The position numbers and the translations under genes were made by a program. From positions 1 to 32,863 of IMG/VR virus record IMGVR_UViG_3300048599_000105: a stretch of 32,863 nt of DNA; one strand, given 5' to 3'. Positions 25,207 through 31,980 of the stretch are shown here, piece by piece. Each line of letters starts with the position of its first letter. The first letter of the stretch is position 1. Source of the DNA: a virus. Lineage: Duplodnaviria > Caudoviricetes. The notes beneath the pieces were generated by a model that was not told the DNA's origin, did no database searches, and saw only the letters and a list, made by a program, of their open reading frames with translations.

Positions 25207-25883
25207 TATTTTTCTCTGTTATCTCCCGCCCATTGTTCAGCCATAGCGCGGGCGATGCCCGGAAATGTCGAGCTTCTTACTTTTGCCCTATCCTTTCCTC
25301 TGCATGCAGTTTCAAAATACGCTTTATGTCCCTTTGGCGTTATGTACCTTGGTTCTTCAGCAGGAACAATATTTGTAGGTCGTAATGGCGGCAAATTTTT
25401 AAGCCATAGGCATGTATTTTTTCTTTGCGAGTGTCCGAATTGGTAAGGTGTGATAATCTGATCCGGTTTCCTGTAATGAGTGTTTGCATATCCTACTGGA
25501 TTTTCTATAGCAATTTTTTCAGTATCAGCCTCTACAAAAGCCATAAAAAAATTGAATGCCTTATCTCGTTCTCTTTCTCTCTCGGCTACTTTGTGCGGCG
25601 GATTCATTCGTAAGCTATAACTGCGGTTTCCGGCTACTGTCAGATATGTGCACGGCGGGAAAGCGATAAACATTTCCCATTTTTCATCCATAATGTGATT
25701 TAGTCCGTCGTCTGTTTCAAATGTGCAGTTTCCACCAAGTAAAGGAATAACGTCTTGTTGTATGTGCCATTCTGGATGCCATCCACTACATGGCTCAATG
25801 TCGCAGGAATAATCCTCATGTCCTAGTTTCCTCAATTCAATTGTCACCGCCTGGCTTTCCTCACACGCAACTAAGATTTTCAT
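25206..25883 (-). CDS. Compact C5-cytosine DNA methyltransferase-like protein (225 aa)
   Basis: Variant motif I 'LVACEES', catalytic 'FPPCT', 'IENPVG', 'KNTCLW'; ATGA overlap at start 25883. Confidence 0.8.
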   Translation of the reverse strand: MKILVACEESQAVTIELRKLGHEDYSCDIEPCSGWHPEWHIQQDVIPLLGGNCTFETDDGLNHIMDEKWEMFIAFPPCTYLTVAGNRSYSLRMNPPHKVAERERERDKAFNFFMAFVEADTEKIAIENPVGYANTHYRKPDQIITPYQFGHSQRKNTCLWLKNLPPLRPTNIVPAEEPRYITPKGHKAYFETACRGKDRAKVRSSTFPGIARAMAEQWAGDNREK

Positions 25884-26116
25884 GTCCCGTTTTCTCCCAC
25901 AATCACCGGGCGCCCGTAGCGGCAATAGAACAGAAAGGCGTCTTTCGGGATCTTCACGCGGCTGCCCATGACGACGACGGAGAAGCCTAGTTTTTCCGGT
26001 TCGTTCTGAGCTTGCCATCGGATGAGACCGTCGTCGCACCCCAGGTACTCGGCGACGTCCGTCGCGAGGAGCATTGATTTATCGATCGCCTCGATCTCCG
26101 CGAGCGTTTTCGCCAT
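25880..26116 (-). CDS. Excisionase-like winged-HTH protein (78 aa)
   Basis: 'LLATDVAEYLG...GSRVKIPKDAF' pattern. Confidence 0.7.
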   Translation of the reverse strand: MAKTLAEIEAIDKSMLLATDVAEYLGCDDGLIRWQAQNEPEKLGFSVVVMGSRVKIPKDAFLFYCRYGRPVIVGENGT

Positions 26117-28599: not shown

Positions 28600-28842
28600 C
28601 TACGCGATCTCTTCGGCTGCCGGTTCCGGCTCTGGTACGGTAATCCCCAGTGTCTCGTTGATCGCTGCGACGATCTTCGGCGTCGCGTTTTGGCCGCTGA
28701 GAATTTTATAGAGATAGCCTCCATCGAAGAAAAGACCGGTTTTCTCCTTTACCTCCTCGATAAGCCATCCCTGTGAACGGTCAATATCAACAAGCCGTTT
28801 CTTGATTTCTTTACCATATTGACAAATTTTCCCTGTATTCAA
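28600..28842 (-). CDS. Cro-like XRE HTH protein (80 aa)
   Basis: First gene of the leftward early operon; TTG start with GAGGGGTG RBS; 'EIKKRLVDIDRSQGWLIEEV...YLYKILSG'. Confidence 0.8.
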   Translation of the reverse strand: MNTGKICQYGKEIKKRLVDIDRSQGWLIEEVKEKTGLFFDGGYLYKILSGQNATPKIVAAINETLGITVPEPEPAAEEIA

Positions 28843-28861: not shown

Positions 28862-28890
28862 TTGACAATTACGTAATTTGGTAATATTCT
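28862..28890 (+). promoter_or_regulatory. Sigma-A promoter for the repressor
   Basis: TTGACA-17 bp-TATTCT. Confidence 0.7.
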
Positions 28891-28988
28891 TACGTTGCTA
28901 CACAAAAGAATTACGGAATTACGTTTTACGTGTTTATAGTAATACGTTATTACGTTATTGTCAACATAATTATGACGTTATTCCGTAA
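28869..28988. promoter_or_regulatory. Four 16-bp operator-like imperfect palindromes (consensus TTACG-N6-CGTAA)
   Basis: 28869-28884 TTACGTAATTTGGTAA; 28911-28926 TTACGGAATTACGTTT; 28942-28957 ATACGTTATTACGTTA; 28973-28988 TGACGTTATTCCGTAA. Confidence 0.75.
28936..28964 (-). promoter_or_regulatory. Sigma-A promoter for cro / the early lytic operon
   Basis: TTGACA-17 bp-TACTAT on the minus strand. Confidence 0.75.
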
Positions 28989-28997
28989 TTTTCGACT

Positions 28998-29363
28998 ATG
29001 CATAAACGGGGTGCGTTGTTTTTGTTGCCTTTATACGAAAAAATAGATACATTATGTAAATCTCACGGTATTACTGTGACTGAGTTGTGTCGCCGAATCG
29101 GTATATCACGCGCTTTGTTGAGTGACTATAAGGCCGGAAGAATTAAGAATATAGGAACATCCGCTCTTCAAAAGATTGCTGACTTTTTCACTGTTTCGGT
29201 TGATTATCTTCTCGGAAATGAAAAGTTGCCCGTTATCCTTTCGGACGACGGGCAACGGGAATATGATGAAATTTTTAACGGCTTGAGTGCTGATACTCGT
29301 GCCAAATGGCTTGAACTGGGTCGCCTTTTTTTAGACGCTCAGCGCAATAATGAAAAAAAGTGA
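28998..29363 (+). CDS. CI-like XRE repressor without peptidase S24 domain (start may be TTG 29022)
   Basis: 'GITVTELCRRIGISRALLSDYK...LQKIADFFTVSVDYLLG'; short helical C-terminus; divergent from cro. Confidence 0.88.
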   Translation: MHKRGALFLLPLYEKIDTLCKSHGITVTELCRRIGISRALLSDYKAGRIKNIGTSALQKIADFFTVSVDYLLGNEKLPVILSDDGQREYDEIFNGLSADTRAKWLELGRLFLDAQRNNEKK

Positions 29364-29439
29364 GGAATTCCCTCTGCTGCTCAGGTGTCAGGTTAATTTC
29401 TTCTTCTGAACTGTTTTGACTATGCTCATCATCATTCAT
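29275..29439 (-). CDS. Unannotated 54-aa protein, candidate anti-repressor, overlapping the cI 3' end in antisense
   Basis: GAGGT RBS before ATG 29439; MNDDEHSQNSSEEEINLTPEQQREFLTFFHYCAERLKKGDPVQAIWHEYQHSSR*; directly downstream of the riboswitch terminator. Confidence 0.6.
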   Translation of the reverse strand: MNDDEHSQNSSEEEINLTPEQQREFLTFFHYCAERLKKGDPVQAIWHEYQHSSR

Positions 29440-29493
29440 AATACCTCGCTTTCCTTTCGGTTGTGGATGTATCTAAATCACTTAATCATACCC

Positions 29494-29520
29494 AAATAAA
29501 ATGACGGCCCTGCAGCCGTC
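29494..29520 (-). terminator. Intrinsic terminator forming the riboswitch expression platform
   Basis: GACGGC-TGCAGG-GCCGTC-ATTTTATTT. Confidence 0.7.
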
Positions 29521-29534
29521 GTAAAGCATGATAC

Positions 29535-29622
29535 ATGCTTTGTGCAACTGGCTACCCCCTATGATCTGGGGCCCTGTAGCTTTGCGCCGCCGGCTCTCGC
29601 CGGGTTTGCCAAATATATAATT
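29535..29622 (-). ncRNA. Cyclic di-GMP-I (GEMM) riboswitch aptamer
   Basis: Minus strand GGCAAACCCGGC-GAGA-GCCGGCGGCGCAAAGCTACAGGGCCCC...GGGGGTAGCCAGTTGC matches the GEMM consensus: GGCAAAC, GNRA-capped P2, CGCAAAGC junction, P3 and AGCCAGTTGC. Confidence 0.88.
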
Positions 29623-29645
29623 TTCTACCGTTTTGCGGTAAATTC

Positions 29646-29673
29646 ATTATACATCCAGCCATAATAAACGCAA
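29646..29673 (-). promoter_or_regulatory. Promoter driving the riboswitch transcript
   Basis: TTGCGT-16 bp-TATAAT, about 35 nt upstream of the aptamer core. Confidence 0.6.
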
Positions 29674-29793
29674 TGGAAATAGTAATATTTATCCGTTTTG
29701 TACAAACAGAATCATAAAATATGACGGTTTTCATCCCCGCCGTGTATCCGTTGTGTCCCCATTTTGTCGCCTCGACAGTCCCAAAGTGCACCT

Positions 29794-29817
29794 ATATTAT
29801 AGTTTTTACTATAATAT
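29794..29817. promoter_or_regulatory. Palindrome carrying two opposed TATAAT boxes
   Basis: ATATTATAGT-TTTT-ACTATAATAT upstream of the Arc-like gene. Confidence 0.5.
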
Positions 29818-29830
29818 GGGGGTTACGTCG

Positions 29831-30010
29831 ATGACGGAGGAACGAAAAGAAACAAAGCTTCGGATAAGCTACGCGCTTTGGGAACAGGTCGCGGCGATCG
29901 CAAAGAATGAGGGCCGCTCAGTCAACGCTCAGATTGAGTATTTCGTCGCCCAGTGCGTCAGTACATATAAACCCTCAATCCTAGGTAAGAGAAAAAAGGC
30001 CAATCGATAG
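29831..30010 (+). CDS. Arc-family ribbon-helix-helix protein (59 aa)
   Basis: 'TKLRISYALWEQVAAIAKNEGRSVNAQIEY' Arc signature; GGGGGT RBS. Confidence 0.82.
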   Translation: MTEERKETKLRISYALWEQVAAIAKNEGRSVNAQIEYFVAQCVSTYKPSILGKRKKANR

Positions 30011-30660: not shown

Positions 30661-31791
30661 ATGATCTGCCGGAAGTGTAAAAAGGAAATCGACGAGACGC
30701 CGTTTTGTCCGCTCTGCGGGACGAAACAGGAGACGCCGGCGCAAAAGGCAAAGGCCCGAGGGAACGGGACGGGGTCTGTGTATAAGCACGGCGATACTTG
30801 GGTCTCCGCCATTACGATCGGTAAGAAAAAGGTCGACGGCAAGATCCGCTATGTCCGCAAGACAAAAGGCGGCTTTAAGACGAAAAAGGACGCCGTCGCG
30901 TACCTCTCCGATCTTCTGAACGGAACAGCGGAGAAAAAGCCCCGTGCCGTCACGCTGGACAGCTTATGGGAAAGTTATAAAAACGGCCCGTTTAAAAAAC
31001 TCAGCGCGAATACGCAGTCGGCATACAAAACAGCACGGCATAAGATGGACGATATATTTTTTTCGGATATCCGCCTTATAAATATCGACGATCTGCAGCG
31101 CTGTGTCGATCAACACGCCAAAACCTACGACCCGGCGAAAGACATGCAGAGCGTATTATCCCATTGCTATAATTTCGCAATGGCGGAGCAGTTCGTCACC
31201 GTCAACCTGTCGAAGTTTATCACGCTGCCGGTGAATAGCCCCGAGGATGGTATTCCGTTTTCGGAAGCTGAAATTAACAGCTTGTGGGAGCATTACGGCC
31301 ATGGTGACAAGGTCGCCGGGTATGCGCTCCTGATGATCTATTCCGGGATGATGCCTGGCGAGCTATTCAAGGCAGATAAAAATATGATTGATTTTGATAA
31401 CCAAACAATAGTCGGCGCCGGAATGAAAACAAAAAAGCGCCGGTCGACGCCGATCGTGATCGCCGACTTTATGCTCCCTGTTCTCCGGGATCTCTGCGAT
31501 TACTCTCAGGGTGTCAAGCTCTGCTTTACCTCGCGGGATAGATTTTACATTGCATTCCGAGAAATGCTCACTCGTTGCGACTGCCGGCCAGCGTTGACGC
31601 CGTATTCCTGCCGGCACACAACGGCGACGCTCTCCGCCCTCGGGAACGTCGCTCAATCTGTCCTTTTGGAAATTATGCGTCAGAAAAAATTCACGACGAC
31701 CCAGCGGTATATACACATCGACGTGTCTAAATCACTTGAGGCGATCAACACACTCAAAGCGGAGCTTTTAAAACAAGAGACGCCGGAGTAA
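30661..31791 (+). CDS. int: Tyrosine integrase with N-terminal zinc ribbon (376 aa)
   Basis: CRKC..CPLC; 'RGNGTGSVYK', 'GGFKTKKDA'; catalytic region 'YSGMMPGEL', 'PYSCRHT', 'TTQRYIH'; adjacent to att. Confidence 0.9.
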   Translation: MICRKCKKEIDETPFCPLCGTKQETPAQKAKARGNGTGSVYKHGDTWVSAITIGKKKVDGKIRYVRKTKGGFKTKKDAVAYLSDLLNGTAEKKPRAVTLDSLWESYKNGPFKKLSANTQSAYKTARHKMDDIFFSDIRLINIDDLQRCVDQHAKTYDPAKDMQSVLSHCYNFAMAEQFVTVNLSKFITLPVNSPEDGIPFSEAEINSLWEHYGHGDKVAGYALLMIYSGMMPGELFKADKNMIDFDNQTIVGAGMKTKKRRSTPIVIADFMLPVLRDLCDYSQGVKLCFTSRDRFYIAFREMLTRCDCRPALTPYSCRHTTATLSALGNVAQSVLLEIMRQKKFTTTQRYIHIDVSKSLEAINTLKAELLKQETPE

Positions 31792-31874: not shown

Positions 31875-31939
31875 CTCCCCTGCTAAGGGAGTAGAGCGTG
31901 ATGAGCGCTGCGAGGGTTCAAATCCCTCCTTCTCCGCCA
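31875..31939 (+). pseudogene. 3' fragment of tRNA-Ser(GCU) = attachment-site core at the right prophage junction
   Basis: Anticodon arm CTCCC-CTGCTAA-GGGAG, long variable arm, T-arm GAGGG-TTCAAAT-CCCTC, acceptor 3' strand CTTCTCC-GCCA; the D-arm and 5' acceptor strand are absent. Confidence 0.88.
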
Positions 31940-31980
31940 AAACCCGCAAATGCTTGCAGTACAAGCGTATGCGGGTTTTT
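31939..31980 (+). terminator. Hairpin/terminator after the tRNA fragment
   Basis: AAAACCCGCA..TGCTTG-CAGTA-CAAGCG..TGCGGGTTTTT. Confidence 0.6.

Follow-up and report, generated by a model that had tools for sequence, protein, structure and literature searches.

The window that we analysed, meaning the whole stretch of DNA at its full length of 32,863 bases, corresponded to the virus record IMGVR_UViG_3300048599_000105, for which CheckV estimated a completeness of ~54%. It contained head genes (including those for terminase, portal and capsid), early genes, a lysogeny module and a tyrosine integrase, and the phage is a prophage of Clostridia. Relatives of the integrase (30661..31791, plus strand; PF00589 and PF14657) were found in genomes titled Oscillospiraceae, Clostridia and Christensenella, and the host gene flanking the prophage matched an 83% identical cluster with one member named Clostridiales bacterium. 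Beside the integrase, at 31878-31940, the sequence looked by eye like the 3ʹ portion of a gene for a tRNA, probably that for serine (GCT anticodon), with the host gene beyond it; ARAGORN called no whole tRNA at this position, and the partial tRNA is likely the attachment site. GGDEF domains were present in five of five related genomes (7-31 matches in each) and the c-di-GMP-I aptamer family RF01051 in 52 of 151 genomes of the related order, which indicates that these bacteria use the c-di-GMP signal.

The repressor gene of the lysogeny module (29031..29363, plus strand; the longest frame starts at 28998) coded for a short cI-like protein of the XRE type, of ~110 aa, with HTH_3 and HTH_26 over the cut-off, and was composed of the HTH domain and a two-helix tail without a peptidase domain. 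Since neither an S24 domain (PF00717) nor an M78 peptidase was detected in the record, ~54% complete as it is, both a self-cleaving cI and an ImmA-type protease route were rejected. The early lytic operon is headed by a cro-like HTH gene at 28600..28842 on the minus strand (phrog_1468, E 5.8e-5; HTH_3 below cut-off). The region between cI and cro (28862..28996) contained divergent promoters (28862-28890, plus strand, and 28964-28936, minus strand) and repeated operator-like sites, in the form of 19-nt direct repeats and inverted repeats. The consensus of the LexA box is GAAC-N4-GTTC, and the slightly wider pattern used in our scan, GAAC-N4-GTTY, was absent from the window, where 2.4 occurrences were expected by chance and where the record is incomplete to the extent given above.

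The 3ʹ end of cI was overlapped by 89 nt by a convergent ORF of 54 codons (29275..29439, minus strand), which the initial annotation had named a candidate anti-repressor and which we regard as a candidate of the AimX/SinI-like type. It was preceded by a ribosome-binding-like sequence, and the best LexA-like site upstream of it had three mismatches. Further upstream on the same strand we found the c-di-GMP-I (GEMM-I) aptamer that the initial annotation had placed at ~29622-29535: the search with RF01051 gave a match over the full model at 29540..29620 with 53.7 bits, well over the gathering cut-off of 35 (E 5.6e-8), and it was the sole Rfam match in the window. On the other side of the riboswitch lay an Arc/RHH-like regulator gene (29753..30010, plus strand), which diverges from the riboswitch promoter and probably has its true start near 29831, together with a lipoprotein-like ORF, another ORF of 42 aa and the integrase.

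When positions were counted along the RF01051 alignment, the first G of the GGCAAA motif fell on 29610 and the C following the base of P3 on 29544. We take the model columns at these positions to be those of G20 and C92 of the Vc2 aptamer, in agreement with the equivalents named in the initial annotation. According to the available text of PMC6140456, G20 and C92 recognise c-di-GMP, while A20 marks the sensors of cGAMP; a cGAMP-type aptamer was rejected because the position-20 equivalent is G and not A, and the predicted ligand is c-di-GMP. The aptamer has a GAGA tetraloop, but the columns of the CUAA-type receptor in P3 were gaps in the alignment, and P1 was weak. The tetraloop receptor is present in almost half of the family and membership without it is possible (available text of PMC1950547); by a crude motif count it was also absent from 22 of 49 viral aptamers. 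The absent receptor and the weak P1 may lower the affinity for the ligand.

Pattern scans of IMG/VR, which represent a sample only, gave 218 screened loci, 94 of them with an aptamer, corresponding to 76 distinct sequences. A convergent XRE-type gene was located downstream of 11 of the 76 within 2.3 kb (of 7 within 700 nt), compared to none within 1.5 kb at 29 aptamer loci of a chromosomal control from one clostridial order (30 loci, 29 of them detected by the aptamer profile). The exact order of aptamer, terminator, small ORF, convergent cI and divergent cro, for which the initial annotation had suggested a survey, recurred in two of the 76 distinct viral aptamers: in L006 (identical to L058 and L205), with a tyrosine integrase and a 46-aa ORF, and in L007 (identical to L088), with a serine recombinase and a 43-aa ORF. 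Each of these contigs had a terminase match, their repressors were 28-30% identical to the cI of the window (L007: 30%), and in all three loci the small ORF overlapped cI tail to tail. The promoter, the aptamer, the terminator arm and the MND start of the small ORF were common to L007 and the window, which indicates common ancestry of the two loci.

An Arc-like gene was also located upstream in L007. Its promoter region was conserved between the window and L007, with a similar GGGAC-containing motif inside the second promoter that L007 has for its small ORF (window 29750-29800; L007:2385-2425 and 2730-2760). The Arc-like protein may provide the switch with an additional input. L006 shared with the window an integrase (59% identity) and an early protein of 78-83 aa (window 25880-26116, minus strand; L006:1711-1962, minus strand), probably excisionase-like, without a confident family. 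L006 also contained, divergent from the riboswitch and between it and the integrase, an ORF with a type IV pilin-like N-terminal methylation motif (L006:3388-3783, plus strand; PF07963).

Beyond these loci the layout was rare. Many of the remaining viral aptamers were near-identical copies or host DNA, and the last viral scan yielded 12 loci, five of them new, with no convergent HTH gene at the new five. All eight aptamers of a metagenome scan were located before ordinary genes (0/8 with the layout), none of the 119 loci found with the expression-platform pattern and none of the 10 distant loci found with a single cI had an aptamer, and blastn against INPHARED phages and PLSDB plasmids returned partial aptamer matches only. 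In L043 an aptamer preceded a small ORF whose end, we presume, recalls Sda-type sporulation inhibitors.

The elements that would make the aptamer a switch were examined further. The predicted sigma-A promoter of the riboswitch transcript, TTGCGT-16 nt-TATAAT at 29646..29673 (minus strand), had 9 of 12 consensus matches, with a perfect -10 and three of six in the -35, which is why our promoter scan passed over it; L007 has TTGCAA-16-TATAAT at the same place. The intrinsic terminator (29494..29520, minus strand) consisted of a 7-bp GC-rich stem (29520-29503) and an imperfect U tract to 29494. Terminator-like sites as such were about as frequent in 4 kb as in shuffled sequences (6 against 4.8), so the terminator call rests on its position. 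The locus anatomy of the initial annotation, including the promoter at 29673-29646 and the terminator at 29520-29494, was confirmed, but it had passed over the absent tetraloop receptor, the likeness of the ORF to a repressor tail described below, and two further elements: a predicted antiterminator strand, which is the 3ʹ strand of the aptamer itself (29546..29555, pairing with 29520-29512), and an 8-bp spacer hairpin (29523..29541, minus strand) that brings the antiterminator strands together.

We folded the transcript at four lengths without ligand. When the transcript ended behind the 5ʹ arm of the terminator, the antiterminator had a pairing probability of 0.99, whereas in the full transcript the terminator stem reached 0.95 and was 2.4 kcal/mol below the antiterminated fold. 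In L007 the same antiterminator helix, kept through a U-to-C change, had a probability of 1.00, with a gap of 3.9 kcal/mol between terminator and antiterminator, and a hairpin of other sequence occupied the place of the spacer hairpin. No antiterminator was found by folding in L006, the terminator of which differs. The computed antiterminator and terminator form an expression platform with mutually exclusive folds; since the antiterminator needs the aptamer's own strand while aptamer and terminator can fold together, the riboswitch is predicted to be an OFF switch. The terminator wins at equilibrium even without ligand, so read-through would need kinetic trapping, and the folding model predicts an OFF switch under kinetic control, with the ORF expressed at low c-di-GMP.

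On this basis we propose the following mechanism. At high c-di-GMP the ligand would lock the aptamer, the terminator would form and no antirepressor would be made, so that the operators in the cI-cro interval stay occupied by cI and lysogeny is maintained. At low c-di-GMP the 3ʹ strand of the aptamer would pair with the emerging 5ʹ arm of the terminator, allowing read-through into the ORF, and the small protein, by analogy with AimX/AimC and SinI/SinR, would cap the tail of cI in a heterodimer, block its oligomerisation and free the cro promoter. We consider it fairly probable that the riboswitch stops transcription at high c-di-GMP, that the small protein disables cI and that falling c-di-GMP leads to lysis; in this proposal the anatomy comes from the sequence and annotation tools, the RNA switch was computed and the protein step is inferred. 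It is more likely that such a switch tunes the rate of induction and the choice at infection than that it acts as an all-or-none trigger.

The same terminator equilibrium would be expected if the ORF were an antirepressor but the riboswitch were weak or inert and mostly terminating, with induction by some other input, which we regard as rather unlikely. The absent tetraloop receptor and the incompleteness of the record (~54%) agree with such an arrangement, as do second sigma-A-like promoters found in L006 and L007 between terminator and ORF, on account of which the riboswitch is one input of two in these phages; one study cited in the available text of PMC7699646 reported C. difficile prophage riboswitches to be insensitive to c-di-GMP. 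However, the prophage riboswitches examined in PMC7699646 itself were responsive, the ligand-contact bases and the antiterminator were kept in two diverged phages, and we found no second promoter able to express the whole ORF in the window phage. One candidate, TCCACA-18-TATTAT at 29467-29438, was rejected, as it overlaps the start codon.

The second promoter of L006 contains a LexA-type box. This bears on the suggestion of the initial annotation that the prophage reads the second messenger of its host rather than SOS, which can be upheld for the window phage at most, given that no LexA-type box, S24 or M78 was found in its ~54% complete record. As a general claim it is too strong, because L006 combines the riboswitch with a LexA-type box and because the available text of Kabel et al. 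(bioRxiv 10.1101/2025.11.23.689978) reports that DNA damage induces systems which have no box of this kind.

A circuit of this kind might also be real and differ in its ligand (3'3'-cGAMP or another dinucleotide) or in its sign, being ON and not OFF. The Rfam model does not tell the ligands apart, our folds were computed without ligand, and in vibriophage VP882 lowering c-di-GMP increased lysogeny (available text of PMC11315295). Against this stand the G, not A, at the G20 position as well as the compatibility of aptamer and terminator and the need of the antiterminator for the aptamer strand, and we find a different ligand or sign quite improbable.

The protein step of the proposed mechanism depends on the 54-aa product. 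No homologue was found by a word search among proteins of 29-95 aa, no family was found in Pfam or PHROGs, and the SinI family (PF08671) gave no match at E up to 1. By its pattern, the ORF could be aligned to the two-helix tails found in the repressors of the window, L006 and L007. On a cI C-terminal profile built without the window phage it scored 10.5 bits, with none of 1000 shuffles as good, and on a profile of the other small ORFs 4.3 bits, with 0.7% of the shuffles as good, shuffling being a weak control for amphipathic helices. By sequence, the ORF appears to resemble cI's own C-terminal helix pair.

We also predicted a complex of cI residues 62-110 with ORF residues 7-50, along with three controls. 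The score was 0.58, compared to 0.00 for the best control, with a partner pLDDT of at least 75 and an agreement between runs in at least 92% of contacts. Of the solved pairs, 116 of 157 reached the mark for this score, as did 2 of 215 mismatched pairs; with scores up to 0.60, however, only 18 solved pairs and both mismatched ones did so. The model lends weak support to binding of the 54-aa protein to the cI tail. The antirepressor reading of the initial annotation gained support from the synteny in L006 and L007, the likeness to the cI C-terminus and the AimX/AimC geometry, which make the ORF a putative antirepressor.

The riboswitch transcript runs head-on into cI, so the read-through RNA might act on the repressor gene as antisense or by polymerase collision, the ORF being incidental. 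Antisense RNAs are driven by the riboswitches Cdi1_4 and Cdi1_5 of C. difficile prophages (available text of PMC7699646), and at five other viral loci (L028, L033, L054, L064 and L084) the aptamer pointed antisense into the 3ʹ-terminal part of an XRE gene coding for 77-90 aa. Three of these loci (L028, L054 and L084) had, further downstream, a convergent cI and a small ORF that was accompanied by a LexA-type box. The ORF's lack of a homologue would fit an RNA-level action, but its likeness to the repressor tail would not, nor would the ribosome-binding-like sequence and the MND start that it has in common with L007. In addition, start-to-stop and recoded alleles of AimX showed that the protein acts and not the antisense RNA (available text of bioRxiv 10.1101/2025.11.23.689978). 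We consider an RNA-level action to be unlikely.

As for the target of the small protein, c-di-GMP riboswitches of C. difficile control small proteins with host functions (available text of PMC13724677). At L078:2312-2437 (minus strand) a c-di-GMP-I-like aptamer directly preceded a true SinI-family gene of 41 aa (PF08671, E 5.9e-11), followed by holin and amidase genes and with no adjacent cI; from its sequence this locus appears to be a riboswitch-controlled anti-repressor of the biofilm type beside phage lysis genes. The 54-aa protein could likewise be under c-di-GMP control but act on the host, either on a regulator of the SinR type or, as a small toxin, on the membrane. With the ORF and cI overlapping tail to tail at each of the three loci, and with a protein that is hydrophilic and has no long hydrophobic stretch, we consider a host target very improbable.

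To place the module among related phages we collected loci with the same integrase type. A query of viral contigs with the single integrase found nothing, and an alignment query was used instead, giving 160 loci (80 from genomes and 80 from viral contigs), of which one had an aptamer, namely L205, i.e. L006. With the window included, an HTH gene lay on the integrase strand in 142 of 161 loci, and many of the short HTH genes faced a convergent ORF of 33-65 aa. From these we picked 36 small ORFs by eye (window included), a biased sample, in which a LexA-type box (up to one mismatch, within 130 nt) accompanied 8 of 36, against a mean of 1.4 and a maximum of 6 in 200 shuffles. Unannotated ORFs of 33-65 aa facing a short cI were common in Clostridia prophages (L125-L284), with 28 of the 36 picked ones having no LexA-type box. 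On the cI C-terminal profile, 19 of 37 picked ORFs (L007 added) scored better than 95% of their own shuffles and 18 of 37 did not. The small-ORF profile retrieved 12 proteins at E up to 0.001, nine short ones and three long repeat proteins, at least one of them an input sequence.

Our proposal that falling c-di-GMP releases the antirepressor is weakened by the missing receptor, the weak P1, an equilibrium favouring the terminator and the failure to find an antiterminator in L006; by the second promoters of L006 and L007 and the rarity of the layout (1/160 same-integrase loci, 0/8 in the metagenome scan); and by an ORF that has no close homologue, scores 4.3 bits on the small-ORF profile and belongs to a set of which 18 of 37 did not beat their shuffles. 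It is favoured by the RF01051 match with the G20/C92 equivalents, the exclusive folds and the layout recurring in L006 and L007; by the convergent XRE gene at 11 of 76 viral against 0 of 29 chromosomal aptamer loci; and by the likeness of the ORF to the cI tail, the AimX geometry and a record in which no LexA-type box, S24, M78 or second promoter for the whole ORF was found.

In a broader sense, we lean slightly towards the view that there is a class of Firmicutes prophages with a protein-free c-di-GMP riboswitch as input, built around a plug-in slot before a repressor-mimic antirepressor that takes a LexA box in some phages, AimR antitermination in arbitrium phages or a riboswitch, and that such prophages would remain quiescent while the host is sessile and high in c-di-GMP and would depart at its dispersal. 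The riboswitch would occupy the slot alone in the window phage and together with LexA in L006. The question bears on how prophages with non-cleavable repressors get induced without DNA damage, and the circuit is small: a 150-nt RNA, a 54-aa protein and a 110-aa repressor. If true, it would be a riboswitch controlling a viral life-cycle decision, of which we found no description in the literature searched, and the release of prophages in clostridial communities would be linked to whether the host is sessile or motile. In line with the initial annotation, which knew of no characterised riboswitch-antirepressor-repressor circuit, none was found in the literature on phage riboswitches and on c-di-GMP and lysogeny, as judged from titles and the openings of abstracts, with few subscription papers covered. 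What appears new is the wiring of a known sensor to a known type of antirepressor module, and also the antiterminator predicted by folding between the aptamer 3ʹ strand and the terminator.

Several known systems resemble parts of this arrangement. In VP882, the VqmA-Qtip-cI pathway reportedly uses Qtip as a small antirepressor. As in our proposal, the fate of a temperate phage depends there on a small antirepressor and on a signal of the host that is not DNA damage, but the sensor is a transcription factor that responds to a quorum signal. The effect of c-di-GMP on VP882 lysogeny is exerted via surface sensing by the host and is opposite in sign (available text of PMC11315295). The SinI/SinR pair of Bacillus subtilis, as described in the available text of Kabel et al., likewise involves a small helical mimic of the repressor oligomerisation domain; it is, however, a chromosomal biofilm switch, and the 54-aa protein did not match PF08671.

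Known prophage-borne counterparts of the RNA are Cdi1_4 and Cdi1_5, the c-di-GMP-I riboswitches of the C. difficile prophages phiCD630-1 and phiCD630-2 (PhiCD119-like; available texts of PMC7699646, PMC3649979 and PMC11477304), which share with the window the aptamer family, the OFF regulation by termination and a transcript antisense to a neighbour gene. They differ in their output, which is an antitoxin RNA belonging to a type I toxin-antitoxin pair of the lysis module and not a protein directed against the immunity repressor. A second promoter is also present at RCd11 of C. difficile, where the riboswitch-driven transcript is dispensable (available text of PMC7699646).

A matching layout is found in the AimR-AimP-AimX-AimC-AimL system of arbitrium phages of Bacillus, as far as it is described in the available text of Kabel et al. 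(bioRxiv 10.1101/2025.11.23.689978), where the words riboswitch, c-di-GMP and Clostridi are absent from the main text. In both cases a regulated terminator is followed by a small ORF overlapping the 3ʹ end of the repressor gene, with a divergent cro-like gene. AimX, coded by an ORF of 29-80 aa that is located after the terminator, convergent on the short repressor gene and overlapping it, is the antirepressor and acts by heterodimer formation as in SinI/SinR; AimC, like the cI of the window, is a short HTH repressor (80-140 aa) without an autocleavage domain and with a divergent small HTH gene. The LexA box after the terminator also has a counterpart, being found in phi106 among the arbitrium phages and in L006 among the riboswitch phages. 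In contrast to arbitrium, read-through here would be set by a ligand-binding RNA in place of the protein AimR and the peptide AimP, a second messenger of the host would serve as signal and the host is a clostridium. With no aimR or aimP upstream, the locus would work like the arbitrium module without being an arbitrium system, and it suggests that antirepressors of the AimX type may form a general output module to which different inputs can be attached.
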